Assembly (NCBI GenBank): GCA_900545265.1
Contig: UQYI01000003.1
Location: 8,932-72,931 of the forward strand
Reading direction: 5' to 3'
Source of the DNA: an uncultured Eubacteriales bacterium
GTDB taxonomy: Bacteria > Bacillota > Clostridia > Christensenellales > CAG-138
DNA: 64,000 nt
Shown piece by piece: positions 6,566-33,149 of the stretch. Position numbers and translations under genes: made by a program. Every line of letters begins with the position of its first letter. The first letter of the stretch is position 1. The notes below the pieces were generated by a model. It searched no databases, was not told where the DNA came from, and saw only the letters and a program-made list of their open reading frames with translations.

Positions 6566-6583
6566 ATGTACACCTCCTGGGTT

Positions 6584-7054: not shown

Positions 7055-7171
7055 ACCATTTGTTCCGTCCTTTCTACAAGATGAAAATATCTGGGAACGG
7101 GCTGAATTTCTTTTATGTCTCCCATTCCCTCATAGCTGGTATGTGCACTGCCATATAAGTCCCCTCTGTCT

Positions 7172-8218: not shown

Positions 8219-8239
8219 AAAACTTTACTTCCTTTTGGC

Positions 8240-11876: not shown

Positions 11877-12632
11877 TCAGTTTTCCTCGTCCATATAACT
11901 GCCCTCTTCTTCCTCCCGCAGAGTCAATGCCTTCAGTCGGATAGGGGCGAAAGTATCTTTCTGCATTACATGCACCTCTCCCCGGGCCATGAGCTCCAGC
12001 ACCGCCATAAAGGTGACCACCAGCTCCATGCGGGTAGGGCTGCCCGAAAACAGTTCGTAAAAATTCAAGGAAGCTTTTTCCCGAAGGCGGCGGCGAATCA
12101 TCCCTGAACGCTCCCGAACGGTATATACGTCCTGCCGCACCCGGTGAAGCAGCGCCTCTTTTTCTTCGGGCTCCCGGCTAAGCGCCGACAAAAAGGCCAG
12201 CAGCAGGGTATCGGCCTCCACATCCGGTAGGTCTGCCTCCACCGGTGGAGCGGGCAGATCCTCTGGCAATCTGGCAAAAGCTTCCCGACCCCGCTCAAAA
12301 AGACGGCCCAGATCCTCCCCGGCCGTTTTGAATACCTGATACTCCTTCAACCGGCGGATAAAGGCCTGCTCCGGATCTTCCTCTTCTTCCTGCAAGGGGG
12401 GCGGAGCAGGAAGCAGCCGGCGGGATTTGATATACAGCAGCTGGGCCGCCACCAGCAGAAAGTCACTGGCTCCGTCCATCTGCTCCTTGTCCATGTCTCC
12501 CACCGCCTGCAGATACTGGGCGGTGATCTCGGATACGAATATATCCTCGATCCGCAGCTGTGCCTTCTGGATCAGCTGTAAAAGCAGATCCAGGGGGCCG
12601 TCAAACTGTCCGGTGTGTACCTGATACTCCAT
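11877..12632 (-). CDS. scpA: Segregation and condensation protein A
   Basis: Start set at MEYQVHTGQFDGPLDLLLQLIQKAQLRIEDIFVSEITAQYL. This ATG overlaps the TGA of the upstream gene by 1 nt; the ORF track extends to 12788. Confidence 0.85.
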   Translation of the reverse strand: MEYQVHTGQFDGPLDLLLQLIQKAQLRIEDIFVSEITAQYLQAVGDMDKEQMDGASDFLLVAAQLLYIKSRRLLPAPPPLQEEEEDPEQAFIRRLKEYQVFKTAGEDLGRLFERGREAFARLPEDLPAPPVEADLPDVEADTLLLAFLSALSREPEEKEALLHRVRQDVYTVRERSGMIRRRLREKASLNFYELFSGSPTRMELVVTFMAVLELMARGEVHVMQKDTFAPIRLKALTLREEEEGSYMDEEN

Positions 12633-13288
12633 CAAAGCAGCCTCAGGATCCAGTTGTATACCAGATTCTGCGCCCAGTTCAGAGGATACTGCAATACTCC
12701 CAGCCACAGCAGCGCCACCAGTATATACTTGCCGTAACGATGCATGAAATCCCTTATGTTGTGAGGCAGATGCCGTCCCATAACACATTCCAGCACATGG
12801 CTGCCGTCCAGCGGCGGAATGGGGATCAGGTTAAACACGCACAGGCAGGTGTTCATACTGATAATGTTGAAGAAGATGTTTACAAAGGCTTCGTTGTACA
12901 GCAGCGCATAATTGCTTCTGGCCAGCAGCACAAACAGCCCTGAAAACACCAGCACGATCAAAACGTTCATGGTCACCCCCGCCAGGGAAACGATTATATT
13001 GTCCCGGCGGAAGTTCTTGAAGTTCCGATAATTGACGGGCACAGGCTTGGCCCAGCCAAAGCCCAGCAGCAGCATGCACAGCACACCCAGGGGATCAAAG
13101 TGATCCAGGGGGTTCAATGACAAACGCCCCATGTTTTTGGCCGTGGGATCCCCCAACCGGTAGGCCGCATAGGCATGTCCCCATTCGTGGAAAGTGAGCC
13201 CCAGGAGCACTGCCGGAAGCATGTACAAAAGCTGCAGCGGATTTTGAAAATAATACAGGATTCTGTTCATGGTTTCAGTATACCCCAC
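12632..13288 (-). CDS. Site-2 protease family (M50) zinc metallopeptidase
   Basis: 218-aa polytopic ORF with HEWGH (HExxH) and the second motif FNLIPIPPLDGSHV. An alternative start exists at MNRILYYF (13270). Confidence 0.75.
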   Translation of the reverse strand: MGYTETMNRILYYFQNPLQLLYMLPAVLLGLTFHEWGHAYAAYRLGDPTAKNMGRLSLNPLDHFDPLGVLCMLLLGFGWAKPVPVNYRNFKNFRRDNIIVSLAGVTMNVLIVLVFSGLFVLLARSNYALLYNEAFVNIFFNIISMNTCLCVFNLIPIPPLDGSHVLECVMGRHLPHNIRDFMHRYGKYILVALLWLGVLQYPLNWAQNLVYNWILRLL

Positions 13289-13436
13289 CCGAAGCCAAAG
13301 GGCAAGAAAAATCCCCGCGAATCCCGCTTCTTGCGCATAAGCGGATCCCCTTGCACTGGCAAAACAGGCATTGACGCCGATTCAGGCTGCGGATACCGGG
13401 AAGTTCGAAGGAACGTTAATTCACGGGAAGCGGGGG

Positions 13437-13522
13437 TGGGGCGCACTGCGTGCCTGACGGCACGCCTGCGGGGCATTTGCCCCGCAGAGTTCCGGCGGCA
13501 AAGCCGCCGGAACGTGCGCCCC
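13437..13522 (+). repeat. Intergenic multi-hairpin repeat, copy 1 of 3
   Basis: GGGGCGCAC [GCGTGCC-TGAC-GGCACGC] [CTGCGGGGC-ATTT-GCCCCGCAG] [GTTCCGGCGGC-AAA-GCCGCCGGAAC] GTGCGCCCC. Near-identical copies occur at 46473 and 54186. Confidence 0.9.
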
Positions 13523-13650
13523 GCCCATGTATACGGCTCGGCCCCGTGCCCTAACGTCCCAGCCTCCGCCGCAGGAAAATCTCTTTCCTCCGAAAGAGCA
13601 GCTGCATGTTCCTTCTTGTACGTTTTTCCGCAGACCCGTGTTTTTCCCGT

Positions 13651-14778
13651 TCAGCTGCGTATATACGCTTCCATGCACTGCCGGAGAAGCGCCAGATAAC
13701 TCCTGGATTCCACATCCTTCCCTGGGTACAGATCAATCGTGCAAAGCACCTCCTCCCCCGCCCGGAATGTCACCGTTCCTACAGGGGTATCCGTCCGCAG
13801 GGGTGCCGTCAAAGGTTCCGTCACCTCCAGTGTCTTTTCCAGGGCCTCCTCTCCTTTGGGCCGTAGAAAAGCTACGGTATCGTGGCTCACCAGATCCACC
13901 TGTTTTACACTGCCGCTACGCACCTCCACCCCTTCCGCCAGAGGACTGCCCGCCCGGGCGGCGGTGACCTGCCGATAGTTGGCGAATACATGATCCAGCA
14001 ATTCCCCTGCAATGGCAAAGCGCTTCTGACTGTTAGGGGCCCCCAACACCACGGCTACCGCCAGAGTATCATTCTTTTTGGCAGCAAAGACCCCGCAGTA
14101 TCCATCCTGTGCAGAGGATCCTGTCATCAGGCCAAAGCAGCCGCCGTAACTGCGCAGCATTCGATTGGCATTGACCAATTCCGTCCGCCGTCCCCCCGGA
14201 TGGACGATCTCATCCATATATACGCCTGCCCAGCGGCAAAAAGAGGGGCTCCGGGCCGCCTCCAGCCCCAGCAGCGCCAGCTCTCCGGCGGTAAAGGTCA
14301 TGCCCGCCCCGGTGCAGTCGCTGAATTCCTTTTCTACCCCCAGTTCCCGGCAGGTAACGGAGATGTTCTGACAAAACACGTTCTCCGAACCGAAGGCGTT
14401 TTCTCCCAGCGTACACAAGGCATCTCCGGCAGAAAGCATCACCGCCGCTTTAAGCAGTTCTCCGGCAGCTATCTGCTCCCCTGCTTCCAGAAAAGCCGTA
14501 GGCCCGGATATTCCCGCTGCCCGGCGGCTGACGCTCATCAAAGTGTTTTCCTCAATGACTTCGTTGTCAAAGGCTCTGCACAGGGTCAGTACGGCGGGAA
14601 GCTTGCAAAGCCCTGCCGCTGGCAGAGACACGTCTCCCTTCTGCTCCAGCAAAGGCGTCTGCTGTCCTTCTCCCACCACCAAACAGCTTTTACAATCATA
14701 TCCTTCCGCCAACGCCACCGCAGGAACAACCGCCAGCAGGCAAAGGCAGGCAACAAACAGGCACAAAAAACGGCGCAT
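13651..14778 (-). CDS. Secreted S11 (PBP5/DacB-like) DD-carboxypeptidase homologue with degenerate catalytic motifs
   Basis: 375-aa ORF with a signal peptide (MRRFLCLFVACLCLLAVVPAVALA). It aligns by eye to DacF/DacB throughout, including the C-terminal beta-sandwich domain. However, SxxK reads GLCK, SGN reads SAG and KTG reads MTG. Confidence 0.7.
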   Translation of the reverse strand: MRRFLCLFVACLCLLAVVPAVALAEGYDCKSCLVVGEGQQTPLLEQKGDVSLPAAGLCKLPAVLTLCRAFDNEVIEENTLMSVSRRAAGISGPTAFLEAGEQIAAGELLKAAVMLSAGDALCTLGENAFGSENVFCQNISVTCRELGVEKEFSDCTGAGMTFTAGELALLGLEAARSPSFCRWAGVYMDEIVHPGGRRTELVNANRMLRSYGGCFGLMTGSSAQDGYCGVFAAKKNDTLAVAVVLGAPNSQKRFAIAGELLDHVFANYRQVTAARAGSPLAEGVEVRSGSVKQVDLVSHDTVAFLRPKGEEALEKTLEVTEPLTAPLRTDTPVGTVTFRAGEEVLCTIDLYPGKDVESRSYLALLRQCMEAYIRS

Positions 14779-17000: not shown

Positions 17001-17164
17001 GTTTTTCCCTCCGTTTGCTTTTGATTTAAGTATATCCGTCCGGCTGCCAAAGGCAAGCGTTATCTTCTTTCTGCAAAACATCTGTTTTTGCAGAAAGAAA
17101 GGAAACCGATCAAAAGGGCTGTTCAAAAGCCTTTCCGCATGCTATAGTAAGCATGTAAAGAAAA

Positions 17165-17236
17165 GCTCTCATATAGTTTCGCTGAAAACGGTGCGAAAGT
17201 TTCTACAGAGCCGCCGAAAGGCTCTGCTATGAGTGC
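17165..17236 (+). promoter_or_regulatory. Purine riboswitch aptamer, guanine/xanthine class (C discriminator)
   Basis: P1 is CUCAUA (17168-73) paired with UAUGAG (17228-33). J2/3 is GUUUCUAC. P3 is AGAGCC-GCCGAAA-GGCUCU, and J3/1 is GC with C at 17227. The pattern matches the xpt guanine aptamer and lies upstream of a guanine deaminase. Confidence 0.8.
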
Positions 17237-17276
17237 CCGGTATGGATACAGAGTTTCATACGGGCGCTTTTTCTTT
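17235..17276 (+). terminator. Intrinsic terminator forming the riboswitch expression platform
   Basis: GCCCGGUAUG...CAUACGGGC stem (one bulged G) followed by GCUUUUUCUUU, located 28 nt before the guaD start. Confidence 0.65.
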
Positions 17277-17303: not shown

Positions 17304-18560
17304 ATGATCCTGCTCAAAGGCAACATTCTGCACACCCCTGCACCGGGACAGCTGGAAGCCCTCCCCCATGGCGGTCTGCTTCTGGAGGAAGACGGCACCA
17401 TCCGCGCAGTGCTCTCCCATATCCCGGAAGGGTTGGAGGCCCGGGTCATTGACTATGGGGACAGGCTGCTGCTTCAGTCCTTCTGCGATATGCATCTGCA
17501 CGCCCCCCAGTACCCCATGCTGGGCATGGGAACGGATCTGCCCCTGCTTCAATGGCTCCACCGCTATGCTTACCCTACGGAGGCACGTTTTGCGGATACA
17601 GACTACGCCCGGCGGGTCTACCGGCAGCTGGCACAGGTGCTCATTGCCAGCGGCACCACCCGGGTATGCATGTTCTCTTCCCTCCATACCGACGCCACGC
17701 TGATCCTTATGGAAGAGTTGGAAAAGGCCGGAGTCACGGGCTTTGTGGGCAAAGTGAACATGGACAGAAATGGAGATCCCGCCCTGCAGGAGACCACGGA
17801 AGGCTCCAAGCGGGAGACCCTTCGCTGGCTGGAAGCCTGTACCGGATTCCGCTATGTACGGCCCATCCTGACCCCCCGGTTCACCCCTTCCTGCACCGAC
17901 GGGCTCATGGCCTTTTTAGGAGAGCTGGCGCAGGAGCGGGGATTGTATGTGCAATCCCATCTTTCCGAAAATAAAAACGAGGTGGAATGGGTGCGCACTC
18001 TCCACCCGGACTGCTCCCAGTACTGGCAGACCTACGCCAAATTCGGCCTGTGGAAAGAGCATACCCTTATGGCTCACTGCGTCCAGTGCGGAGAAGAAGA
18101 GATCCGTTCCATGGCAGAAAACGGGGTGATAGCCGTGCACTGCCCCGATTCCAACGTGAATATCTGCAGCGGCACAGCCCCCGTTCGCCATCTGCTGGAA
18201 AGCGGTGTATGGGTGACTCTGGGCAGCGATATTGCCGGCGGGGCGCAGCTGCCCATGAACCAGGTCATTACCGCCAGCATACGGGCCAGCAAGGTACGTC
18301 ACATGACGGATCCCGCCGCCCCGCCCTTTCTTACGGCAGCAGAGGGCTACTATCTGGGTGCCGCCTCCGGACACCGTTACTTCGGTGCCGGGCCGGGCTT
18401 TGCCCCGGGGGATAAGCTGCACGCTCTGGTGTTGGATGATTCCGCTTTCCCTGAGCCGGCTTCTCCGCTGTCCCTGCCGGAGCGGCTGGAGCGGGCGCTG
18501 TATCTCATGACTCCCGATTCCATCACCGCACGCTGGTCCGAAGGACGGCTGCTGCCGTAA
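17304..18560 (+). CDS. guaD: Guanine deaminase (amidohydrolase superfamily)
   Basis: Start at MILLKGNILHTP... (AAAGGAGG SD); the ORF track begins at 17229. The metal-binding motif DMHLHAPQYPMLGMG is present, and length and layout fit guanine deaminase. Riboswitch context supports the call. Confidence 0.75.
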   Translation: MILLKGNILHTPAPGQLEALPHGGLLLEEDGTIRAVLSHIPEGLEARVIDYGDRLLLQSFCDMHLHAPQYPMLGMGTDLPLLQWLHRYAYPTEARFADTDYARRVYRQLAQVLIASGTTRVCMFSSLHTDATLILMEELEKAGVTGFVGKVNMDRNGDPALQETTEGSKRETLRWLEACTGFRYVRPILTPRFTPSCTDGLMAFLGELAQERGLYVQSHLSENKNEVEWVRTLHPDCSQYWQTYAKFGLWKEHTLMAHCVQCGEEEIRSMAENGVIAVHCPDSNVNICSGTAPVRHLLESGVWVTLGSDIAGGAQLPMNQVITASIRASKVRHMTDPAAPPFLTAAEGYYLGAASGHRYFGAGPGFAPGDKLHALVLDDSAFPEPASPLSLPERLERALYLMTPDSITARWSEGRLLP

Positions 18561-18590
18561 ACAAAATCAGGTTTCCTTCCCATAGAAATC

Positions 18591-18631
18591 AAAAGCTCTC
18601 CACCGGGTTGCAAGCCGTGCGGAGAGCTTTT
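18591..18631. terminator. Bidirectional terminator between convergent genes
   Basis: AAAAGCUCUCC...GGAGAGCUUUU hairpin flanked by an A-run and a U-run. Confidence 0.65.
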
Positions 18632-18679
18632 ATTCGTTGAGTTTTGGGTTTCAGAGGGCACCCGGGCCCATGTAAAATC

Positions 18680-19408
18680 TTAGCCCCGACGGATGGCCGA
18701 CCAGTCTGCGGCCCGCTGCACCAGATCTTCAAACAGCCGCAGCATCCGTACATCGCTCTGGCATTGTGCTTCCGGGTGCCACTGCACCAATACAAACTGC
18801 CCATCCGCAGATTCCAGCCCCTCAATAACGCCGTCCGGGGCTTTGGCCGTTACGATCAGACCGGGGGCAGGCGCATCCACGCTCTGATGATGGGTGGAAT
18901 TCACATAGATCTCCTCTGTATTCAGCAGCCGGGACAGGCGGCTTCCCGCCGCCAGCTGCACCTTATGGATGGATTCCGATTGAGGATGCTTCTGCATATG
19001 CATCAGGGGCTGAGGGATGCACCGGCCTATATCCTGGTATAGGGTGCCGCCCAGCGCCACATTGGCCAGCTGGATCCCCCGGCAGATGCCCAGCACCGGC
19101 ATTCCCGTCTCCCGGGCATACCGGACGGCAGCCATCCAACAGCGATCTCCCCGGATATCCACCATGCCCAGTTCCGGCAATGGCTCCTGCCCATAAAACC
19201 GGGGATCCACATCCGGTCCGCCGGGCACCAGCAATCCATCGCAGAAAGAGAGAACCGTCTTTACATCCTCAGGATCCTTCGTTTCCGGCAGCACCACCGG
19301 CACCCCGCCGGTCTCCGCCACCCGCTGGCAGCAGGCATGCGGCGCCGCTTCCAAAATCCGCTCTCCCGTTATCCTTCTTCCCAATACTGCGATCACCGGC
19401 TTTTGCAT
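18680..19408 (-). CDS. Gamma-glutamyl-GABA hydrolase-like class I glutamine amidotransferase (peptidase C26)
   Basis: 242-aa ORF with the nucleophile elbow VLGICRGIQLANVALGG and STHHQSV...WHPE near the C-terminus. Confidence 0.75.
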   Translation of the reverse strand: MQKPVIAVLGRRITGERILEAAPHACCQRVAETGGVPVVLPETKDPEDVKTVLSFCDGLLVPGGPDVDPRFYGQEPLPELGMVDIRGDRCWMAAVRYARETGMPVLGICRGIQLANVALGGTLYQDIGRCIPQPLMHMQKHPQSESIHKVQLAAGSRLSRLLNTEEIYVNSTHHQSVDAPAPGLIVTAKAPDGVIEGLESADGQFVLVQWHPEAQCQSDVRMLRLFEDLVQRAADWSAIRRG

Positions 19409-19533
19409 ATATCCTTTCCTCCCTTTTCCGTTTTTATTTTATCTTTCTGCGCTTTATACCCGGCTTTGCTTCTGCACATAGCATGTTTATTTCCGGAAGA
19501 TGCGCTATACGCCTCTATTCCACAGGATCTTTT

Positions 19534-20412
19534 TTACTCCGTCCAGGCATACAGAGGCGGTTTTCCCTCCAAACGCCGGGCGGCTGCATCCAGCTGCCGG
19601 CACATCCGCTCCTTATCCTTGGGCAAGCGGCCCCGGATGCGCAGGGATACGCAGTCATGGAATCCCTCATACTCCAGACTCTCCACCTTCAGATTTTCCA
19701 GCAGACAGCGTTCCTCCAGCAGGTTTTCCCGCTCATCAGCCGGAGAAAAAGTTCCGTTCTCCATGGAAGCATACAGCGGCGCCCTGCGATGCAGAAACAT
19801 GGAAAAGTTGATCACCGCCGCCGGGGCCGCAGCATTAAGAAATGCCGCCGTAGCCATGGCATTCTCCACGCCCCGGCCATGACCCGCCACGCCTGTCATA
19901 ATATGAGCCCCGTACTCCATGCCCGCCGCCCGCAGCCTGTCTGTCTGGATGCGTGCCTGTGCCAGCGTATGCCCCTTATGCATAAAGGCCAGCACATCTT
20001 CCAGTCCGCTTTCTATCCCCAGATACAACCGCTCCACCCCCATTTCCCGGAGCAGGCGCAGTTCTTCCTCGCTTTTCCCTGCCACGGCCGGGATGGTAGC
20101 ATCCATGCGGAAATGCTCTGCCTGAGGGAAATAACGGCGCACCATAGAAAGGATCCCGGTAAGCCGGTCCGTATCCATGGCAAAAGCGTTTCCGTCTCCC
20201 AGAAAGACACGCCGTGGATTGCCTCCCATCGCCTTTACCCGCAGGAGCTCCTTTTCTATCTGCTCCAAAGGCAGTTCCCGGTAGGCAAGATGTTTGAAAA
20301 GCATGCAGAACCGGCACCGGTTATAGGAACAGCCCACAGACACCGGCAGCATATAAGACCCCCGTTCCATGGGGCCCCGGCAGATCCAGCCTTCATATTC
20401 CATCTTTTTCAC
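19534..20412 (-). CDS. Radical SAM domain protein, function unknown
   Basis: 292-aa ORF with N-terminal cluster motif VSVGCSYNRCRFC. Note the CX4CX2C spacing. A TIM-barrel-like remainder follows (FLGDGNAF..., LYLGIESG). Confidence 0.7.
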   Translation of the reverse strand: MKKMEYEGWICRGPMERGSYMLPVSVGCSYNRCRFCMLFKHLAYRELPLEQIEKELLRVKAMGGNPRRVFLGDGNAFAMDTDRLTGILSMVRRYFPQAEHFRMDATIPAVAGKSEEELRLLREMGVERLYLGIESGLEDVLAFMHKGHTLAQARIQTDRLRAAGMEYGAHIMTGVAGHGRGVENAMATAAFLNAAAPAAVINFSMFLHRRAPLYASMENGTFSPADERENLLEERCLLENLKVESLEYEGFHDCVSLRIRGRLPKDKERMCRQLDAAARRLEGKPPLYAWTE

Positions 20413-20512
20413 CTCCGGCTAAGTATAACACATGCCTTCGCTTCGGCGCCATGGAAGTTTTCGATACATGCATTTTGCCGCCATATCTGTCGATAAAAAA
20501 TACAAAAAAGGC

Positions 20513-20541
20513 TTGCAATTCTCCTCTTTTTATTTTATAAT
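20513..20541 (+). promoter_or_regulatory. Near-consensus sigma-A promoter driving the BCCT leader
   Basis: TTGCAA (20513-18), 17-nt spacer, TATAAT (20536-41). Confidence 0.65.
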
Positions 20542-20959
20542 CTTGATTATTAAATACAAGTCGGCTGTCTGGTAGCGTCCGCTCCGTATGGGAAGAAGCC
20601 GAACACATCCTTCTTTTGTGTTCCACCCCTGCTTCTTCAGTGTGCTGTATCTTTACCGGATACAGCAGTCCCTCCTAAGGGAACCCCTGCCACCGGGAAA
20701 AGGGAGCCCCGGCGGCAGGGGCCCTGTCTCGTTTTTCAGCCTGCGCCACGTATGAGAAAGGAGGCCGGTCGTTATTCAAAGAACCAGCGACCCACCGGTC
20801 AACAACTGCTTATTCAGATCTCGCAAAGGGATTTTTCCCTTTCGGGGTCTTTTTGACGTATAAAAACACCCAAGCATCTGCGGCGAACATTCTTTATCCG
20901 GAAGATCCTGTTTGTGGGGACTCACAGGGCTTCTTCCTAAAAAACAGAAGAGGTACATC

Positions 20960-22443
20960 ATGTAAAAAGAAAAGAATCGAAATCTTGTTTTTATCCTTTC
21001 CGTGTGCCTGACTCTGCTCATCTGTCTATGGAGCATACTGCTGCCGGATTCATTCGGCACGGCGGCAGGGAACAGCATGCGCTTTCTTACCACCAACTTT
21101 GCCTGGCTTTACTGCCTGGCCATGACCCTGTTCGTAGCGTTCTGCCTGTGGATAGGGTTGTTCTCCAAATACAGAAATATACCGCTGGGGCCGGACGGAG
21201 CCAAGCCGGAATACAGCAAAAGCGCCTGGTTCTCCATGCTCTTCTGCGCCGGTATGGGCGTAGGTCTGGTCTTTTGGGGAGCGGCAGAGCCCATGAACTA
21301 TTTTGCCGCGCCCATAGGCGGCCTGCAGAGCGGCACCGGCGAGGCCATGCGTTTTGTCTTTGCCCGCTCTTTTCTTCATTGGGGCATTCACCCCTGGGCC
21401 AATTATTCCGTGCTGGCGCTGGCACTGGCCTATATGCAGTTCCGCAAAGGGCAGCCGGGGCTCATCAGTTCCGTGTTCATCCCCCTCATCGGGGAAAAAA
21501 GAGCCCGAGGCTGGTTGGGAAAAACGGTGGATGTGCTCTCCGTCTTTGCTACGGCCGCAGGGGTAGCCACTTCTTTGGGGCTGGGGATCCTGCAGCTTAA
21601 CGCCGGGCTGCACTTTCTCACCGGGCTGCCGGAAACGGCTCTGGTACAGCTCTTATTCTGTTTCTGGCGGCGGTGTATATCCTTACGGCAGTAGTGGGCA
21701 TTGAAAAGGGCATGAACACCGTCAGCAAGCTGAATATCCGGGTCAGCATGGGCGTCCTGCTTCTGTTGGTGGTTATCGGCCCCACGGTGCCCATTCTCAA
21801 CAACCTGCTGAAAGGCGCAGGCGCCTATTTAAGCTCTCTGCTTTCCATGACTACAGAGGTAGGAGCCTTTGGAGACGAGGGTTGGTATCGCACCTGGACC
21901 GTATTCTATTGGGCCTGGTGGATTGCCTGGGCTCCCTTTACGGGCTCCTTTATAGCCAGGATCTCCCGCGGCCGCACCATTGGGGAATTTATAAAAGGCG
22001 TTATGTTCCTGCCCGCCGGTTTTTCGGTGATCTGGTTCACTGTATTCGGCACGCTTGGTATGCGCCTGGATATTTCCGTTGTCAAAGAAGCCATAAAGTC
22101 CACTTCCACCGCATTATTTGTGGTATTGCAGCAGTATCCCCTGGGCACGGTGCTGTGCGCCGTTATGGCGCTGCTGATCTTTACCTTTCTGGTCACGGCT
22201 TCCAACTCCGCTACCTATGTGCTGGGCATGTACAGTGAAGGGGGCACTTTGCAGCCTTCCAACAGGAGTAAGATCATATGGGGCGCTCTCATTGCGGCGC
22301 TGGCTGCGATAATGATGCTGGGCACGGGCAACGGCCTTTCCATGCTGCAAACCTTATCCATTGTGGCGGCCTTCCCCTTCATTTTCATCATGCTGGCAGC
22401 TATGCCCGCCCTTGTAAAGGCGCTGAAAGAAGAAAAGCTTTGA
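20960..22443 (+). pseudogene. BCCT-family (betaine/carnitine/choline) transporter, disrupted by a codon-2 TAA and a frameshift near 21650
   Basis: ATG 20960 is followed by TAA 20963. Family-like sequence occupies ORFs 21002-21694 and 21673-22443 in two frames (...FCAGMGVGLVFWGAAEP...; ...VFYWAWWIAWAPFTGSFIARISRGRTIGEF...). Confidence 0.8.
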
Positions 22444-22471
22444 CCCTGTATGGCTTTATACCGCAAAAAGC

Positions 22472-22502
22472 AAAGGAACCGCTAAAAACGGTTCCTTTTT
22501 TG
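22472..22502 (+). terminator. Intrinsic terminator after the BCCT gene
   Basis: AAAGGAACCG-CUAAAAA-CGGUUCCUUU followed by UUUUU. Confidence 0.75.
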
Positions 22503-22518
22503 CACATTATTACAGGTT

Positions 22519-23073
22519 TCAGTTTACAAGCCACTCCTTTTTCAATCGCCACAAGGCAGCCTGGAGATAAGCCAGTTCTTCCGGCGGGATCAGCAGATTC
22601 CGCCGCCAGCTGTTCAGTATTTCCTGCCTTTGCACCGGGTAAAAGGGCGTCAGGAACACCTGACTGCCGTGAAAAACGCCCACACAGCGCAGCTCTTTTT
22701 CAAAAGCCTCCTCCTCATCCTTTTCCTTGCCCAGATACGAAAGATTCAGCACCCTGTTCCAGCGGCGGCTGTCGAAAAACAGACAGTCTTTTCTGGGAAC
22801 ATTCAATACCAGCAGCTGTCCGTCTCCATATACGCCCGCTCCCAAAGCGGTTCCGTGGAGCCAGTAGGGAGACTCTTCTCCGGTTTCCGGCGGAATACGT
22901 TCTGCCATCAGTTCCCGAAAAAATCCATAAGCGATTTGAAAGCTTTTGGCCTCTGCTCCATATTTTTCTGCTACATATGCCTTTTTGACTTGTACAATGC
23001 CGTCTTTTTGCAGAGCTGCCGCCACGGCATCCGCCTGACGGGTATACAGAAGAATACAGCTTTCACGCTCCAT
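22519..23073 (-). CDS. DUF3841-like protein (paralogue B)
   Basis: 184-aa ORF with ...ESPYWLHG...LLVLNVPRKDCLFFDSRRWNRVLN...WRLKKEWL. It shares a motif pattern with the adjacent paralogue. The family assignment is from memory. Confidence 0.55.
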   Translation of the reverse strand: MERESCILLYTRQADAVAAALQKDGIVQVKKAYVAEKYGAEAKSFQIAYGFFRELMAERIPPETGEESPYWLHGTALGAGVYGDGQLLVLNVPRKDCLFFDSRRWNRVLNLSYLGKEKDEEEAFEKELRCVGVFHGSQVFLTPFYPVQRQEILNSWRRNLLIPPEELAYLQAALWRLKKEWLVN

Positions 23074-23647
23074 AGACCGCTCCTCTCAGCCACTCCCGTT
23101 TCAGCTCCCATACGGTGCCCTGGCACAGTCCGCTGCCGGTAGCAGGGTCCTCAAAGACCCTGTCCCAGCTTTGTATGATCTTCCGCTTCAGCAGCGGATA
23201 AAAGTTCCCCTTTCCGGTCTGGATAAGGGCCGTCTCATTGCCGATGCCGTTGCGCTTAAGCTCTGCTTCGTGGGCATCCCGATCCTTTTCATCCAGAGGG
23301 ATATACAGATAGTTCACCCGGTATCCCCAGCGCTCCACATCCGTCAGCACCACAAGATCCCGTGGGATCTCCAGTTCCAGACACACGCTGCCCGGCAGGG
23401 ACGGCAGTTTGTTTTCCTCCTCCAGAAACAGCCAGATGGGGTACTCCGCCCCCTCCGGGCGGGGTACCAGTCTTTCGGCATGACGGACGTACCAGTCATA
23501 CAGCTCCAGGTAATATTGACTGATAGCCCCGCTCTTTTCCTCGATATGGCTTTTTTGTACCCGGTACACACCTGTCTGTTCCAATGTTTTCAGAACCTGG
23601 GGATGCTGGCGGGTATAGGCCCGCAAGGTCTTTCCTGATAATTCCAT
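23063..23647 (-). CDS. DUF3841-like protein (paralogue A)
   Basis: Start at MELSGKTLRAYTRQHPQVL... (GAAGGAG SD); the ORF track extends to 23929. Motifs seen: YDWYVRHAERL...AEYPIWLFL...LELEIPRDLVVLTDVERWGYRVN...VWELKREWL. Confidence 0.6.
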   Translation of the reverse strand: MELSGKTLRAYTRQHPQVLKTLEQTGVYRVQKSHIEEKSGAISQYYLELYDWYVRHAERLVPRPEGAEYPIWLFLEEENKLPSLPGSVCLELEIPRDLVVLTDVERWGYRVNYLYIPLDEKDRDAHEAELKRNGIGNETALIQTGKGNFYPLLKRKIIQSWDRVFEDPATGSGLCQGTVWELKREWLRGAVYGA

Positions 23648-23733
23648 AGTCGGCTCCTTCTTCAAAAATGCAGAATACGCAAAGGGGCCGGCCATAAAGA
23701 CCGGCCCCACTGCAGCAGAGAGACATAAGAGAC

Positions 23734-25042
23734 TTATATTTTCACCTTGAATACGGTCTGTTCCGTAATATCCGTGGCCAGTGCTTCCAAAGCCACGCCC
23801 ACCCGGTGATACCGCAGCTTCCACCGCTCTGCCGCCGGAGCATTTGGATCTCCCAGCGGATAGGGAATGGAAATGGTCGGCACGATCCGGTTGGCCCCTA
23901 CGGTCAGGGACACGGGGATCAGGTTGCACATATGCACAATGGGGAACCCTGCCTTTTCAAACTCTTTTACCATCGTTGCACCGCAACGCGTACAGGTGCC
24001 TCATGTGGAGCCCATAATAATGGCGGTTACCCCGTCTTCCTGCAAAAAGGGAATCATCTCGCCGGGCCTCAGCCTCAGTAGTGCCTGTGCCTACGGTGGA
24101 ATAGAACCAGTTATGGAGCCGGCCGATCTTTCCTTCCCGTTCATAGGCGCGCATGGCATCCAGCGGCACGATCACGTTGGGGTCGGCGTTGGCGGCAGCC
24201 GGGTCAAAGCCGGCGTGGATGGTTTTGAACTGACCGGCGCTGAGACGCTCCATACCGGAAACGTCATAGCGTCCCCAGCGGGTAGCAGAGGCGGACTGGA
24301 TGCGATCCGGATTATCCACAGGAACGATGCCGCCGGTAGTCACCAGTGCCACCACCGCCTTGGAAAGATCCCGGATGGCCGGTGCAATGGGCACCATCTC
24401 CTTTTCGGGAATGATGAGCTCCGTCTGATAGGGCAGCTTGTTCATCTTTTGGATGAGCATCTGCACCCTGCGGTAAGCGGCGGTATTCTCCCTGATATTC
24501 TCCAGAAATTTTTCGTGCCGGCAGCCCCGGGGGAAGTATCCCTCTGCCAAGGCGCCCTCATTGGGCAGCCCCTGCAGGAGCTTATTGGCAAAGGCGGCCA
24601 TTGCTTTTACATCCTGACGCATCTTTACGGCTCCGTTGCCGCCCTTAAAAATGATCACATCCCGCTTGAACATTTCCACACCGGGGTTTTCTTCGTTCAT
24701 GGAAGTGATCACGGGGATATGGAGCCGTTCCTTCACCGCTTTGCATATGTTGCCGCAGGCCACGCCGTAACGCCCTGCCTGAAAGGCGGGTCCGGCAATA
24801 AACAGATCGCAGGGTTTATCCTGCAGCATATCCATGATCCGGGAAAGAGCCTCTTCCGTATGAGAGCCCATAAAGTTGTCGCCGCAAACCACGGTGTGCG
24901 TGATCTCGGCTCCCTTGAGCGCCGCCTTGAAAGCCATGCCGGGGCCCACCACGCCCTCCATGATATAGGGCTCCTGGTCTGCCTTATCCTCTCCGCCCAC
25001 ACCGGCGAAGAACTGATTGAGATAACAGATAACCTTCTTCAT
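23734..25042 (-). pseudogene. Glycine/sarcosine/betaine reductase component B selenoprotein subunit (GrdB/GrdF/GrdH family), with Sec-UGA and an apparent frameshift
   Basis: N-terminal part is MKKVICYLNQFFAGVGGEDKADQEPYIMEG... (ORF 23957-25042). The Sec motif IIMGST-UGA-GTCTRCGATMVKEFEKAGFP lies in another frame, with UGA at 24003-24001, and that frame continues to the stop at 23734. Confidence 0.8.
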
Positions 25043-25053
25043 GCCGCACCTCC

Positions 25054-25584
25054 TTAATATTCGATCATGGTCTTGACGGAGAACCCGGAGATATGATCCC
25101 CGCAGAACCAGTTGTTATCCTCCATGATAATGGAGCCGTCGTCCCTGGCGGATTTGCCCAGCTTTTCATCGTAGCCCCAGCTGCCGGACATACCGTCCCG
25201 GTTCATGGCCTCCAGATTACCTATGACCGTCTTGCAGGCGGGCAATTCCGTAAGTTCCGAAACATTCCCCGTAGAAACCAGAGCGTTCATCTTGGCGTCC
25301 AGCGTTACCAGCGGCTGGGAGAAGCCGTCCCGTCCGGTGCATTCGTTAGAAATGCCTACCACGGGGATCCCCGCATCCTCCAGAATCACCTGACAGCGGA
25401 CGTAATCGGTGTCGGGGTTGCCGTATCCCTCTTCGGTGACGATGGCATAATCCACACCCAGGTTTATGCATCCTTTTCTCCCAGGCAGACGGATCTTACC
25501 TGAAAATTCCCTATTTTGAGTTTCAAAGCAGTAACTCCTTTCTTGCGTGTGGTAATGGGGGACTCGATAACTTTCGGAGAGCAT
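25054..25584 (-). pseudogene. C-terminal remnant of a GrdE/GrdI-type reductase proprotein subunit
   Basis: 176-aa ORF. ...LGVDYAIVTEEGYGNPDTDYVRCQVILEDAGIPVVGISNECTGRDGFSQPL... matches only the C-terminal third of the family. The N-terminal two thirds are missing here. Confidence 0.7.
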
Positions 25585-25753
25585 TCTTTAATCATGATTA
25601 TAAAATTAAAAAGTAAAAAAATCAGGATGATTTAACAATTTGATCGTTTTTTCGATTACTTTACATGGGAGCTTTTTACATCCATACCTCTGGCGCAAAG
25701 AAAGTGAATGTGGTAGTATGTTTTAGAAATCTTGATTTGAAAAGAGAGTATCC

Positions 25754-26419
25754 ATGGGACGACCCAAACTGAAACAGACGGCCAGCGATGCCATCAAGCA
25801 GCGCCTTATTGAAAGCACCCGCAAACGCATCAAAGCGGAGGGGCTCTCCGGTGTGACCATCCGGAGCATCGCCCAGGACGCATCGCTGAACAGTGCCGTT
25901 TTATACAAGTATTTTGAGAATCTGGATGAACTGCTGCTCTTTGCCTGTGTGGATACTCTACGGGACTATACGGCAGCCCTGCTGGAAGCCGAAGCCAGCA
26001 CCGAAGCTTTCACGCCCCGGGAACGGTATATGACCAGCTGGACGCTGTTCTGCCGCCATGCGTTTTCAAACCCGGAAAGCATACGGCACCTGTTTTTCAG
26101 CGCCCAGAGTGCCCGGCTTAAACCGGTGATCCAGGAATACTACCGGCTGTTTCCCGGTGAGTTGGGCGATATGCCCCAATGCCTGCAGCAAATGCTGCTG
26201 GAAGCGGATCTCAGCTGCCGAAACCTGGCGGTTCTTCAACTGGTTCTGGAGGGAAAGATACCGCCCCATGAACTGGTGCTGCGAAACGAGTTGACCATCG
26301 CCGCCTTTTATATGCTTTTGACCCAGCGCATCCAATTCCCGGATCAATACCCGGCAGAACGGCAGCAGGCCCGAATGCTGGAAGCCTGCGCTGCTCTTTT
26401 GCGGCCCTTTGCCGAATAA
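25754..26419 (+). CDS. TetR/AcrR family transcriptional regulator
   Basis: 221-aa ORF with the N-terminal HTH GLSGVTIRSIAQDASLNSAVLYKYFENLDEL. Confidence 0.8.
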   Translation: MGRPKLKQTASDAIKQRLIESTRKRIKAEGLSGVTIRSIAQDASLNSAVLYKYFENLDELLLFACVDTLRDYTAALLEAEASTEAFTPRERYMTSWTLFCRHAFSNPESIRHLFFSAQSARLKPVIQEYYRLFPGELGDMPQCLQQMLLEADLSCRNLAVLQLVLEGKIPPHELVLRNELTIAAFYMLLTQRIQFPDQYPAERQQARMLEACAALLRPFAE

Positions 26420-26464
26420 ACAGTCTTCCGCAGCGTCCCGCTGGAAAGCAAGAGCTATATGTGC

Positions 26465-26510
26465 AAAAAAGCAGCCGTCTCCTCATGGAGGAAACGGCTG
26501 CTTTCTTAAA
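26465..26510. terminator. Bidirectional terminator between convergent genes
   Basis: AAAAAAGCAGCCGU-CUCC-UCAU-GGAG-GAAACGGCUGCUUUCUU. Confidence 0.6.
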
Positions 26511-26529
26511 TCGCGTTGCTGCACTCACA

Positions 26530-27678
26530 TCATAGCATTTCCAAAAAGGCTTCCAACCGGGTAGACAGCTGTCCTGCATCCCCTGTGGAGTAATCCGTCT
26601 CCAGTGTCAGACACCGCAGTCCCAGCTTTTCCATCTCTTTGCGGACGGTACGGCTCTCGATCATATAAGGGGTACAGGCTTGCAGATCGATCTCCACCAC
26701 TCCATCCACCGCATATTCCGAAACCAGCTTTTTCAGCAGCTCCATGCGCACGGTGTTGGGCGTCATAACGGCGCAGCCGATACCCAGGTACCGCTCTGCA
26801 ATGGCTGCCAGAATATCCTCCGCCTCTTCATCCACCATTTGATAAGCCGCCTTGATGCCACTGCAGTTTTCAAAGCACACCACGGTGCCGCCATGCGCTT
26901 CAATGGTCTTGATGGTCTTTTCCAGCACGCCGCCAATGGGGCAGCCCGTTACCAGGATCCTTTTGGCATGGGGATCCACCTGGTTTTCTCCGGCAGCAAA
27001 GGCCTTTTGGATATCCTCCCGCAGACCGCGGATCTTTGCCACCCGTTCCTCATGATCAAAAAGGAAACCGGATCCTTCCAGCGTTTTATACAGATCATAA
27101 CCCTGCGCCATGGGCGGATTCTGCTTTTGCAGCTCCATCAGGGCCAGCCGTTCCCTCCGCTCCAGATTGCGGGCATGAGCCGCCCTGCGCAAAGCCTCAT
27201 CGGTGATCGTTAAAGAAAAGGTCTCTTCCAGATATGCCTTAAAGCGCCGCACCTCTGCCGTCCACTCCTGCAAAGCGTCCGGTCCGCTGCCCTGGGGAAG
27301 TTTTAATATATAGGTGGGGCGAATGTGATTCAGCAGCTCATACATCTTCTTTTTTCCGTCGCAGGTGGTCTCCCCTACGATCAGGTCGGAAAAGTAGGTG
27401 TACGGGCATTTATCGGAAACGGCAAACCCGTAGCTGGATTTGATCAGCGGGCACAGGTTTTTAGGCAGATCCGCTTCCGCCGCCGGGATCGTTTCTGCGC
27501 TCATGCCGCACAGGCTCACCGGGGTAAATCCCGCCGCATCCAGAATTTCCGAGGGAGTAAAGGTGCAGAATATTCCGGCAATATGGCCACCGTTATCCTT
27601 TATCTCCTTTACTTTGAGGAACCCGTTTTTCCGGGCATCGCCAAATTCTGCAAACTGTGCAGGCAGATCTCTTGTCAT
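26530..27678 (-). CDS. 2-hydroxyacyl-CoA dehydratase / BcrC-BadD-HgdB family protein (double-cubane-cluster-type)
   Basis: 382-aa ORF ...IAGIFCTFTPSEILDAAGFTPVSLCG...LCPLIKSSYGF...GETTCDGKKKMYE...VTGCPIGG...FENCSGIK. The conserved Cys pattern fits the family. No activator ATPase gene is adjacent. Confidence 0.65.
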   Translation of the reverse strand: MTRDLPAQFAEFGDARKNGFLKVKEIKDNGGHIAGIFCTFTPSEILDAAGFTPVSLCGMSAETIPAAEADLPKNLCPLIKSSYGFAVSDKCPYTYFSDLIVGETTCDGKKKMYELLNHIRPTYILKLPQGSGPDALQEWTAEVRRFKAYLEETFSLTITDEALRRAAHARNLERRERLALMELQKQNPPMAQGYDLYKTLEGSGFLFDHEERVAKIRGLREDIQKAFAAGENQVDPHAKRILVTGCPIGGVLEKTIKTIEAHGGTVVCFENCSGIKAAYQMVDEEAEDILAAIAERYLGIGCAVMTPNTVRMELLKKLVSEYAVDGVVEIDLQACTPYMIESRTVRKEMEKLGLRCLTLETDYSTGDAGQLSTRLEAFLEML

Positions 27679-28148
27679 CCTTTTTACCTCTCTTCATTTA
27701 TGGGGCAAAATGCCGGTCTGTTAAAACAAAAGCTGCCGGACAAAACCCTAACAGCGATTCATATAAGTATATCCCCTGTTTTTTCTTCTGACAAAACGGA
27801 TAAAACGAACAAACCGCATTTTGATCGTTATAAACGATTCTTATTCATTTTGACATTCCTTCTTTGTCATCCGATATTTTTATGCGTTTTGTTTCCTTCG
27901 ATTTTTCACACTTTTATTCTGCCCGGCAGAAAATAATTTTTATTTTTTGTGTTTTCTCTTTTTTCCTGTGTTTCAGGTATTTTTTATCACTGGTTGTACG
28001 AGAACTTCGGAATTATCGATTGTATAAGTACTTGTCAAAAATGGTAAAGTATGATATTTTAGTTTTGATTTTGGTTTTGTCGTGCACGTGTATGCGCGCT
28101 GCCATGCCCCTAAAGCCAAACAACAAAAACAAGATATGGAGTACATGT

Positions 28149-30269
<2,121 letters not shown>

Positions 30270-30288
30270 ACAATCTGACTGCACACCA

Positions 30289-30323
30289 GGCGGCCGCCCG
30301 ATCATGGACGGCCGCCGTTTTTT
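30289..30323 (+). terminator. Intrinsic terminator after hppA
   Basis: GGCGGCCG-N12-CGGCCGCC followed by GUUUUUU. Confidence 0.8.
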
Positions 30324-30521
30324 AGGTCTCATCCCCAAAGCCAACTTTATTTTGCGGTCGGCTGCGCATATTACGTTCATGCCGAAAACCATGCAGAACG
30401 CTTTCAAAGCAGCCCATTGAACAAAAAATCGGCCGTCCATTTACGCACACCGGGTTTCATGATATGTTTATATAAAATTCAGTCTGTCCGGCTCTGTCTG
30501 CCAGGCACAGGAGAAGCTCCC

Positions 30522-31817
30522 ATGGAAATTGCCCGCATACTGGAAAAGCTTAAAGAGTCCCCCTGCACCTGGAACTATTTCGGTCCCCCTTCGGAAGAGG
30601 TTTTTGCCGTAAGTCTTACCGGTTCCGGCGCTCATTTTCACTCCGGTGTACTGTACTCAACACCACGGATCGTTACCAGTATGCCCATCTGTATGAAAAC
30701 ATGTGCATCCTGGTCACGGAGCCCTATCATGCTTCCCGCCTTTTTGAGATCGTCCAGCAGCGGCTTTTCTTCCGGGGATACGACCCTGATCACCGCCTGC
30801 CGCCCGAATGCTTTTCTTATGCGGCTGCAAAACAGTCCCTTTATGCTTTTGGAACCGGGAGATGGATTGGATCCCCTGCCCCGGCGTATGCTGTATATGC
30901 GTATCTGTCAGGAACAGGCAGATATACTTCTGTTCACCGCAGAGCAGGAAAACAGCTTTGCAGATACGGATGCTGCCTCCAGGCTGGCCGCCCTGCGCGA
31001 AGCATTCGCCAGCATTCCCTTGAAGCAGGAGCACCTTTGTCCGCAGCTGCAGCTGCAGAACCTGCTGTTCCGGCTGCTGCAAAACAAGCCTTCCAATGAA
31101 GAGGATATCAAAAAGCAGCTGACTGCGCTGGGCTGGACTTTTTATGAAAAATACTATGTGCTGGCCATCTACCGAAAGCTGCAGAACTGCCCCGGCTCTC
31201 TGGCGGAGGAGATCTCCCATATTCTGGGGGAAAAGGTGTATGAATTTGGGGATTATTACATCAGTATCCTCCATTCGGACTGGAAAACGGAGCTGTATGC
31301 GCTTTTCGGGCGCAATTTCCCCGAGCTTAAAGCCCTGATCCAGCGCACGGATATGTATGCTTCCCTGAGTTACGGCTTTTTTGACATTATCAACGCCGCC
31401 ACCGCCATGAAGCAGGCTACCCGCTGCATCGAGATCATCCGCAAATTCAGCTGGTCACAGCGCATCAACGGCTACGGGGATATGGTCATCTCCCACCTGA
31501 TCGATACCGCTCTGGCCTGCGGAGAGATCACACTGGACAGCGTATGCCACCCCATTGCACTGAAGATCAGGGAATACGATGACAAAAACGGTACGGATCT
31601 GCTGGATGTGCTGGCCACTTACATTTATTCCGGCTTGTCCGTAAAAATCTCCTCCGAATATCTGCATATGCATATCAACACCGTATATCAGCGGATACAC
31701 AAGCTGGAAGAGGATTTCGACATTGATTTCAGTGACCGGCGCATTGTCACCATGCTCCATATCTCCATCATTGCCATGGCCTACCGGGGAGATTACCCCG
31801 CCGACCGGTATCTGTAA
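30522..31817 (+). CDS. PucR/CdaR-family transcriptional regulator, with a possible internal out-of-frame stretch
   Basis: Start at MEIARILEKLKES (AGGAGA SD). The C-terminal PucR HTH reads LLDVLATYIYSGLSVKISSEYLHMHINTVYQRIHKLEEDF. Residues ~47-110 look non-protein-like, whereas an alternative frame looks coding. Confidence 0.65.
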   Translation: MEIARILEKLKESPCTWNYFGPPSEEVFAVSLTGSGAHFHSGVLYSTPRIVTSMPICMKTCASWSRSPIMLPAFLRSSSSGFSSGDTTLITACRPNAFLMRLQNSPFMLLEPGDGLDPLPRRMLYMRICQEQADILLFTAEQENSFADTDAASRLAALREAFASIPLKQEHLCPQLQLQNLLFRLLQNKPSNEEDIKKQLTALGWTFYEKYYVLAIYRKLQNCPGSLAEEISHILGEKVYEFGDYYISILHSDWKTELYALFGRNFPELKALIQRTDMYASLSYGFFDIINAATAMKQATRCIEIIRKFSWSQRINGYGDMVISHLIDTALACGEITLDSVCHPIALKIREYDDKNGTDLLDVLATYIYSGLSVKISSEYLHMHINTVYQRIHKLEEDFDIDFSDRRIVTMLHISIIAMAYRGDYPADRYL

Positions 31818-31950
31818 AACGGCCCAAACCCAAAATCCTCCCTTGACAGGGAGGATCCGGGCAGCATGGCTGCCTCCTGTTTGCCGCATCTGGGGTAAAG
31901 AATGCGGCGACAGCCACTCTATTTCTACTTACAGGAGGGGAGACACTTTT

Positions 31951-32770
31951 TCACTTTGCAGCGGACGGTCCCTGGTCATGCAGGAGCCGCCGCTGTTTTT
32001 TATATACACCGTTCACCAGCAGCAGCGAAAGCAGCGTGGCAGCGGCACAGAAAAGATAGTATCCGGTATAGCTGCCGGTCGCATCCGCCAACAGCCCCGG
32101 CAGCGGAGACATGCACAGCCCGCCCAGAGTACAGCAGGACTGAAGCTTTTTCAGTGTGGAGGCATACTGGGCTTCATCCGTCAGTTCCGCCACCCACATG
32201 GGGGTTCCTACGGTGCTGATGGTAAAGCAGCCCAGCCCCAGACATATGGCCACCGCATATACCGGCAAAGGCGATATGCCGTTGAAGCATACCACGCCCA
32301 CATGGCCCAGTATCAGCATCCCGTAATACAGCAGGTTGGCTTTTTCCACACCCATGGCGTCTGCCGCCACGCCGTAAAGGGGCTTGCCTACCATGTTCAT
32401 AAGGCCGTTAAGGGCCATGACGGAGCTGACAAACACCACGTCATACCCGGCCGCAATGGTTGAAAAGTTAAAATTATCCCAGCTGCAATAGGTAAAGAAG
32501 CCTGCGCAGACCATGGCAATGCCAAGCAGGAGCACTACCTGCTTCCCTACCGGGGGAAGCTTTTTCTTTTCTTTCTGAACGGAATGTTCCCACGCCCCAT
32601 AGGGTGCCAGCTGCAGCGCCTCCGGGCTTTCCCGCAGGAAAAGGAGCACCACCAGCCCCAGCAGGGCAAAGAGCCCGCCCATGATCAGTTCCGCCGTCAG
32701 AACACCTTTTTCGGATACGATCCCGGTAACGGGTACAGACAGAAGCAGCGAAGTCACTCCTGAGCTCATG
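31951..32770 (-). pseudogene. MFS transporter, 5'-truncated and fused in frame to the reductase remnant
   Basis: This is the C-terminal ~270 aa of ORF 31951-32952. It has 2 TM helices, a central loop (RESPEALQLAPYGAWEHSVQKEKKKLPPVGK) and 6 TM helices. About 4 N-terminal TM helices are absent. The junction position is approximate (32766-32787). Confidence 0.65.
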
Positions 32771-33149
32771 GCACATATAAAGGGCACATCCTCTTTGGGA
32801 TCGGCATTTTCGGCTACAAACACCAGGTTGATGAGCTTTGCATAGGGAGACATCTCGGCCGCCGGGCCGGACATATCCACCATACCGTTCATGCCCTGCC
32901 GGCTGTGCAGCCCGGCGCCCAGCACGCACATACCGTCCAGTGCGTAGGTCACGCCGCTGCCTTGACGGGAATGATGCGGGTGCTGTCTCCCGGCCGGGCA
33001 ATGTGCAGGGAAACGTTTTTCAATTTTCCGTCCTTATTCAGCGCCTCTATGGCTTCTTCCCGGTTTACGGTGAGGATCCCGTCCGCAAAGGCGTTTTCTT
33101 CACCGAACCGAACGTCTTTGACGCTGAAATGTCCGATCTCCAATTTCAT
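32771..33149 (-). pseudogene. N-terminal remnant of a GrdE/GrdI-type reductase proprotein subunit, in two frames
   Basis: MKLEIGHFSVKDVRFGEENAFADGILTVNREEAIEALNKDGKLKNVSLHIARPGDSTRIIPVK is followed by a stop. Family-like sequence then resumes in another frame: GSGVTYALDGMCVLGAG...GMVDMSGPAAEMSPYAKLINLVFVAE. Confidence 0.7.

Follow-up and report, generated by a model that had tools for sequence, protein, structure and literature searches.

Relics of two selenoprotein-B-type operons, both probably lost by mutational decay within one species of the Christensenellales

A stretch of 64,000 nucleotides from an uncultured Eubacteriales bacterium (Christensenellales, CAG-138; contig UQYI01000003.1, positions 8,932 to 72,931), referred to here as the window, carries broken genes of the glycine reductase family between its positions 20,960 and 33,149. 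Our analysis makes it very probable that they are the relics of two operons encoding selenoproteins of the B type, which are both decaying within the species through ordinary mutation. The first, a betaine reductase module, would ancestrally have comprised a divergent TetR-family regulator gene, grdI, grdH with its selenocysteine (Sec) codon, two DUF3841 genes and a convergent BCCT betaine transporter gene. The second would have consisted of genes that we call grdX and grdY, the latter with a Sec codon, a small open reading frame (ORF), an SSF and an MFS transporter gene, accompanied by a gene for a PucR-type regulator. According to the proposed sequence of events, operon 1 would have been inactivated repeatedly, by separate events in different strains (Table 1), and operon 2 would have been gutted by a single deletion of about 4.3 kb, from which an in-frame GrdX::MFS fusion ORF remained. 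In the lineage of the window, the fusion ORF would later have lost 76 bp and the regulator gene 157 bp.

The window was annotated by six-frame translation and profile searches (Pfam, NCBIfam), with Rfam used for RNAs (Table 2). The organism is known solely from metagenome assemblies. A homologue search with the repaired GrdH sequence retrieved P0001, a protein of 350 aa that is 98% identical and stops at the Sec codon, and led to two conspecific contigs, L019 and L020. Both are syntenic with the window, with the genes for the membrane pyrophosphatase, the HGD-D-family protein and the TetR-family regulator, then grdI, grdH, the two DUF3841 genes and the BCCT gene, and from a radical-SAM gene onward. 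L020, which shares 98.55% nucleotide identity with the window over positions 17499-28871, served as the intact reference for lesion calls. For grdI, the tblastn queries were the intact GrdI proteins of L001 and L014, the closest loci among species-representative genomes, which belong to metagenome-assembled genomes (MAGs) of Oscillospiraceae/Clostridia with GrdH identities of 82% and 79%, respectively. Thirteen related loci, from Lachnospiraceae, Tissierellales and Oscillospiraceae, share the TetR-grdI-grdH-BCCT cassette, often together with two DUF3841 genes; the three genes hit in the window thus form one functional unit.

Each of these three genes carries its own lesions. First, grdI still has an AAAGGAG motif followed by a TTG start at 25526, and tblastn aligned positions 25529-25467 with GrdI residues 1-20 and positions 25464-25057 with residues 307-442 at 92-96% identity. 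Relative to the 442-aa GrdI of L020, an 856-bp out-of-frame deletion with its junction at 25465/25464 has removed codons ~21-306. The 176-aa 3′ ORF of this remnant is present on several hundred contigs. Secondly, grdH has lost 11 bp at 24061/24062 (GTATGGCACGG in L020), which shifts the frame after codon 328, 22 codons ahead of the UGA, and interrupts the reading frame to the Sec codon. Profile positions 1-324 of betaine_GrdH are matched in one frame and positions 348-435 in the other, with the UGA between them. Thirdly, the second codon of the BCCT gene is an ochre TAA (20963-20965) directly after the ATG at 20960, at a position where L020 has CAA (Gln). The same gene has undergone a 4-bp deletion at ~21651-21655, in which one TCTT of a tandem pair present in L020 was lost, and the resulting frameshift places Pfam BCCT profile positions 1-223 and 220-485 in different frames. 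The intact L020 allele encodes 487 aa. The nonsense codon and frameshift of the BCCT gene, as well as the frameshift of grdH with its Sec codon and a hairpin like a selenocysteine insertion sequence (SECIS) kept, had been read from the window by the original prediction, and the comparison with L020 confirmed and defined them.

The assignment of grdH is established. NF040795 is the best model for both frame pieces, at 551.8 and 171 bits, and the intact GrdH of L020 (350 aa + UGA + 88 aa) reaches 778.2 bits with Sec written as Cys, for a cut-off of 775. The window copy is therefore betaine_GrdH by ancestry and not an intact member. For the SECIS element, the covariance-model match is the evidence, since its folding free energy was no better than that of shuffled sequence (z = 0.04). 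Programmed frameshifting in grdH was considered and rejected, as the shift results from the loss of 11 bp that the intact allele retains, with four codons removed. Further truncated GrdH forms (P0237, P0243 and P0244) were found in the same 90% cluster, drawn from the 15 of 293 cluster members listed. The clustering of grdH frameshifts at codons 328-340 was taken as ascertainment, because near-full-length ORFs alone cluster with the 350-aa representative.

The BCCT gene is preceded by a leader of about 420 nt (20542-20959, plus strand), which gave no Rfam match to a riboswitch or leader RNA even at E≤1. A terminator-like hairpin lies inside it at 20714-20728, and the leader could be a regulatory element of an unrecognised kind.

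The remains of the second operon were identified through the MFS part. A word-based search with the repaired fragment at 33149 gave five short, mostly broken relatives only, and the MFS part was the productive query. It retrieved many conspecific proteins of 424 aa that combine Gly_reductase and MFS_1 domains, corresponding to the fusion without the 76-bp lesion, and also P0154, an intact MFS protein (416 aa, 96% identical), together with other intact MFS proteins at 60-71%. The contig encoding P0154, L021, has 97.1% nucleotide identity to the MFS part of the window and begins with the coding sequence for the C-terminal part of a GrdB-family protein beyond its Sec, followed by a small ORF, an SSF transporter gene and the intact MFS gene. 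The whole operon was found on L022-L026, where it encodes a Gly_reductase protein (435 aa), a GRDB protein (347 + UGA + 77 aa), the small ORF product, an SSF transporter (503 aa) and an MFS transporter (412 aa), with a gene for an HTH_30/PucR regulator convergent to it; in L022 the operon occupies 698-7947. Orthology with the L022 operon is indicated by identities of 71% for the MFS part and 50% for the full-length regulator, with the same gene order and strands. Residues 1-150 of P0126, used as a stand-in for the 33149 fragment, are 80% identical to L022 GrdX and 39-42% identical to GrdI, and the fragment itself (33149-32791) matches GrdI of L001 and L014 at 30-51% identity in tblastn.

In L022 coordinates, about 4.3 kb are deleted between GrdX codon ~146 and MFS codon ~141, which joins the two genes in frame. 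The junction, at window position ~32779, reads CCCTTTAT and then, across the break, ATGTGCC, with a 2-bp junction repeat. A further 76 bp are missing at 32962/32963 between the imperfect 10-bp repeats AGGCTGCGGC and AGGCAGCGGC, a lesion shared with L016-18 and L036-38, and the fusion ORF is consequently broken into ORFs of 66 and 333 aa in the window. The Shine-Dalgarno (SD) sequence GAGGAGGGA sits nine bases ahead of the ATG at 33149. Like the promoter-like hexamers quoted earlier for positions 20513 and 33249, this predicted SD near 33150 is present as a sequence motif. Compared with L017, L027, L028 and L029, the regulator gene of the window is missing 157 bp at 30766/30767. The PucR-type gene is fragmented differently in L017, L027-L029, L031, L033 and L036-38. 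Two old frameshifts are seen in this gene in L017 and L027.

Comparison of operon 1 among conspecific contigs revealed intact, half-broken and fully broken states of the module within one species (Table 1). The loss proposed by the original prediction is indeed recent and ongoing: an intact conspecific allele exists at 98.55% identity, and other strains carry independent knock-outs. Over a sequence divergence of about 1.5%, the grdI-grdH pair was first hit at least three times independently, and the Q2* and 4-bp lesions of the BCCT gene occur singly and together. The fully intact module was seen on one contig only (L020), and broken alleles are indexed in 75 to 249 assembly-collection blocks; contig sampling carries a bias from the ordering of search results.

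Table 1. State of the three operon 1 genes in conspecific contigs
Contig or group	grdI	grdH	BCCT gene
L020	intact	intact	intact
L019	W223* (TGG>TAG)	intact	intact
L033-35 (allele in 75 blocks; L034 is GCA_021629225.1 JAJXRD010000021.1)	intact	-1, +1, E339*, -1	intact
L027/28	856-bp deletion	intact	11-bp insertion near 3′ end
L036/38	856-bp deletion	intact	Q2*
L037	856-bp deletion	intact	4-bp deletion and a -1 frameshift
Window clade	856-bp deletion	11-bp deletion	Q2* and 4-bp deletion

The at least three independent first hits on grdI and grdH, together with the parallel death of operon 2, suggest that constraint had been lifted before the individual lesions arose. Relaxed selection on both operons would then have preceded the hits, perhaps owing to the loss of a shared component or to substrates that had become irrelevant. 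Such a component, lost first, is possibly GrdA, GrdC/D, thioredoxin (Trx) or the Sec machinery. The original prediction had stated that grdA, grdC/D, thioredoxin and sel genes are missing from the window, which holds among the scanned window ORFs, where, in contrast to known betaine clusters, none of them was found nearby; a stretch at ~49-52 kb gave no match to any family, and the SelB protein of L014 used as a tblastn query had no match in the window. In L014 itself, a related Oscillospiraceae MAG from goat ileum, selB lies at 12598-14484, 1.6 kb downstream of the intact grdH.

Several observations weigh against decay under relaxed constraint as the whole account. First, the dN/dS of the remnants relative to L020 is not raised, at ~0.3 for grdI and grdH (from 0.29) and 0.67 for the BCCT gene; these values come from 4-13 substitutions per gene, too small a number to be informative, and overlap those of neighbouring genes, so that they provide no signal of relaxed constraint independent of the lesions. 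Secondly, the distribution of lesions does not follow a neighbour-joining (NJ) tree of the shared 6.7 kb, in which the carriers of the 856-bp deletion are not grouped. A single origin and tree-like spread of this deletion is incompatible with that tree and was rejected; recombination, or recurrent slippage in the case of the 4-bp deletion, must be invoked, and we assume that homologous recombination between strains shuffled the lesions. Thirdly, L033-35 have all four of their lesions in grdH and none in grdI or the BCCT gene, which fits a uniform neutral model poorly. Fourthly, many strains have an unbroken 424-aa fusion ORF downstream of a near-consensus promoter. The pattern of L033-35 and the lesions that do not follow the tree also give a hint of recombination restoring or spreading alleles.

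The repeated hits could alternatively reflect adaptive loss, with positive selection favouring strains that no longer reduce betaine or express the selenoproteins, for instance where selenium is scarce or because strongly promoted operons are costly. The at least three first hits on grdI-grdH within so little divergence, the rarity of the intact allele beside broken alleles in 75 to 249 blocks, and the parallel loss of a second selenoprotein operon would all agree with such selection. However, the same pattern is expected if constraint was lifted earlier, no sweep signature or frequency test stands behind a selective account, and the allele counts come from the biased contig sampling described above. 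The lesions are, moreover, of ordinary types: the 76- and 157-bp deletions have imperfect repeats of 10-13 bp at their junctions, the fusion junction has a repeat of 2 bp, and a 4-bp tandem repeat has lost one unit; the 856- and 11-bp junctions have at most 1 bp of homology. We therefore regard adaptive loss as rather unlikely and retain decay following relaxed constraint as the preferred explanation.

We also considered that the relics are functional new genes, the 424-aa protein joining GrdX(1-146) to MFS(141-416) and the re-framed regulator being expressed and used. The fusion is in frame, has 424 aa in many strains and lies behind TTGAAA-17-TATAAT and a strong SD, and the 157-bp deletion removed an out-of-frame stretch and thereby restored a single 430-aa frame from the start through the body of the regulator in the window. 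An in-frame junction is nevertheless a one-in-three chance, and the fusion ORF has been truncated in many independent ways, with at least eight lengths (333, 340, 346, 365, 389, 403, 275 and 265 aa) and with the window (66 + 333 aa) among the truncated cases. In addition, the MFS part lacks roughly the first four to five helices, its Pfam match starting from position 128, and the regulator is fragmented differently in most strains. A function for these relics as new genes is thus very improbable.

An origin of the lesions in sequencing or assembly errors confined to this record, a doubt raised with the original prediction, has practically no probability left. Error-prone assemblies often contain frameshifts, and the site of the 4-bp BCCT deletion is a short tandem repeat, but the same lesions recur in assemblies of independent origin, which differ in sample and pipeline (ENA, Logan, NCBI). 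In the assembly collection, an exact copy of the frameshifted 361-aa GrdH ORF is indexed in 249 blocks, which shows that the lesions are not sequencing artefacts. Three contigs from three samples (L016-L018) are 99.2-99.97% identical to the window over ~13.9-35.0 kb and share every lesion. Deletions of 856, 11, 76 and 157 bp are not homopolymer slips, and the neighbouring genes are unbroken. Between the window and L020, the genic indels comprise only the 856-, 11- and 4-bp deletions, all others being single intergenic bases.

A different reading of the locus underlay the original prediction, in which one GrdE/I-type proprotein gene had an internal deletion and a frameshift and was split by a 7.2-kb disruption, with halves at 33149 and 25584. 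The fragments do cover complementary Gly_reductase ranges (1-65 and 88-144 in one, 297-425 in the other) and both lie on the minus strand, but their 3′ piece is 92-96% identical to GrdI and the 5′ piece 39-43% identical to GrdI as against 80% to L022 GrdX, an SD, a TTG start and the first 20 codons of grdI itself are present at 25526, the 5′ piece continues into an MFS gene and not into inserted DNA, and L020 has the pyrophosphatase, HGD-D-family and TetR-family genes upstream of a continuous 442-aa grdI from which the window differs by a clean 856-bp deletion, so that a split gene with an inserted element is, from these alignments, already refuted and of vanishing probability. The same order and orientation of the three upstream genes in L019 and L020 means that they are not a 7.2-kb insertion. 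Two paralogous genes of two operons had been merged into one: the 33149 fragment does carry a frame-shifting internal deletion (76 bp), and grdI carries its own deletion of 856 bp, but the attribution to a single gene does not hold. The proprotein label was not upheld either. At the position where the GrdE-like L013 sequence carries its cleavage-site Cys, the GrdI orthologues at this locus have no Cys, nor does GrdX, and GrdI probably does not cleave itself as a proprotein would. The GrdI of protein PB from Eubacterium acidaminophilum is likewise not known to be processed.

The surroundings of the two relics are well preserved (Table 2). Flanking housekeeping genes, including prfA, murA, ftsW and scpAB, are intact in the window, neighbour genes are constant in length across contigs, and it is mainly the relic genes that carry frame-breaking lesions. 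The HGD-D-family gene is split in L036 alone (7366-8513; 304 + 78 aa) and is intact with 382 aa in all others. A tandem pair of DUF3841 genes adjoins grdI-grdH in six related loci (L001, L009, L010, L012, L014 and L015), and both genes are full-length in every conspecific contig examined while grdI, grdH and the BCCT gene decay. The pair may encode an undescribed accessory of betaine reductase or be independently useful. Further Rfam elements above gathering scores are a large bacterial signal recognition particle (SRP) RNA (4739-5005, minus strand), a purine riboswitch (17149-17249, plus strand) and a malK-I element (53804-53980, minus strand) upstream of a MalK-type ABC ATPase gene.

Table 2. 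Features of the two operon relics and their neighbours in the window
Feature	Position	Strand	Remarks
Sigma-70-like promoter motif TTGCAA-17-TATAAT	20513..20541	+	10/12 matches; ~420 nt upstream of BCCT start; predicted
BCCT (glycine-betaine-type) transporter pseudogene	20960..22443	+	NF047988 betaine_BCCT and PF02028 split over two frames
DUF3841 gene b	22519..23073	-	184 aa, intact; PF12952 4e-41
DUF3841 gene a	23063..23647	-	194 aa, intact, directly downstream of grdH; PF12952 2e-58
grdH (betaine reductase selenoprotein B) pseudogene	25042-23734	-	NF040795 betaine_GrdH split over two frames
Sec-UGA and SECIS	24001-24003 and 23963-24000	-	both kept; RF01990 SECIS_4 62.5 bits, gathering score 38
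grdI remnant	25054..25526	-	own SD and TTG start, codons 1-20, deletion, codons ~307-442
TetR-family regulator	25754..26419	+	intact, divergent from grdI; conserved cassette member
HGD-D-family gene	26530-27678	-	NCBI name double-cubane-cluster-containing anaerobic reductase; native neighbour
Membrane H+-pyrophosphatase	28149-30269	+	native neighbour
PucR/HTH_30-type regulator, degraded	30522..31817	+	430 aa, ~52 residues short of 482-485-aa orthologues
MFS transporter 3′ part, from codon ~141	31951..32778	-	MFS_1 positions 128-325; downstream half of fusion
grdX 5′ stump, codons 1 to ~146	32779..33149	-	Gly_reductase-family paralogue; Pfam positions 1-65 and 88-144
Second-operon signals: TTGAAA-17-TATAAT; SD GAGGAGGGA	33249-33221; 33167-33159	-	consensus matches only

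The L020 allele resembles betaine reductase protein B (GrdH + GrdI) of Eubacterium/Peptoclostridium acidaminophilum: its GrdH matches the betaine_GrdH model with Sec-UGA and SECIS, its GrdI, as in betaine reductase, lacks the cleavage-position Cys, and a BCCT gene and a divergent TetR-family gene stand beside the pair. Compared with E. acidaminophilum and with grdI-grdH-BCCT clusters of gut Firmicutes, the window has all three parts as pseudogenes. Another difference from the E. acidaminophilum model is that the two DUF3841 genes are members of the cassette here and in several relatives; to our knowledge, such genes have not been described for the betaine reductase cassette of that organism.

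The process is itself of a known kind, namely ordinary gene decay, and GrdH/GrdI is an already known enzyme. Stepwise ("domino") pseudogenisation after the failure of one component is familiar from reductive genomes, such as Mycobacterium leprae and host-restricted Salmonella, and our locus is alike in the unrelated lesions of linked genes, in signals that outlive the coding sequence and in strain-specific lesions. Unlike these genomes, the window has no sign of genome-wide reduction, and its housekeeping flanks are intact. Selenoprotein genes, those of the GrdB family included, are often lost along bacterial lineages (Zhang et al. 2006, Genome Biol 7:R94, PMC1794560). That survey compares species, whereas here intact to fully broken states coexist in one species at ~98.5-99.9% identity, which allows a direct reading of the order in which the hits fell and of their independence. 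The result is a within-species series of the dismantling of a multi-gene accessory pathway, from intact through one gene hit to all genes hit, with lesions defined to the base. It also corrects the annotation of the locus, which holds two dead operons and not one gene hit by an insertion.

The substrate classes of the glycine reductase family include GrdE/GrdB for glycine, GrdG/GrdF for sarcosine, PrdA/PrdB for D-proline and the FarE-type fluoroacetate reductase (NF053623; PMC10838667). Operon 2, as found in L022-L026, is like this family in having a Gly_reductase subunit and a GRDB selenoprotein with a UGA-encoded U-x-x-C-x-x-C motif. It is unlike the known classes in that GrdY of the intact relatives scores below every substrate-specific NCBIfam cut-off (betaine 536 against 775, sarcosine 444 against 800, glycine 396 against 602), and in its SSF (PutP/PanF-like) and MFS transporters and PucR-type regulator. 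On these profile scores and gene contents, the GrdX-GrdY operon looks like an uncharacterised substrate class of the glycine reductase family, to which its intact relatives would point.

The series also bears on the use of these genes as markers, since grdH (PMC6964529, PMC5537630) and grdI (PMC10653893) have each been used alone as markers of the potential for betaine-derived trimethylamine (TMA) in the gut. With grdH intact beside a deleted grdI in L027/28 and L036-38, and grdI intact beside a dead grdH in L033-35, single-marker surveys would wrongly count such strains of this species as TMA producers. Tentatively, the species may be midway through abandoning Stickland-type selenoenzyme reductions, either by prior loss of a shared component or by positive selection. 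If this were true, the loss of a Sec trait could be dated and tested within a single species, with the rare intact allele (L020) and the half-broken ones as a natural allelic series.

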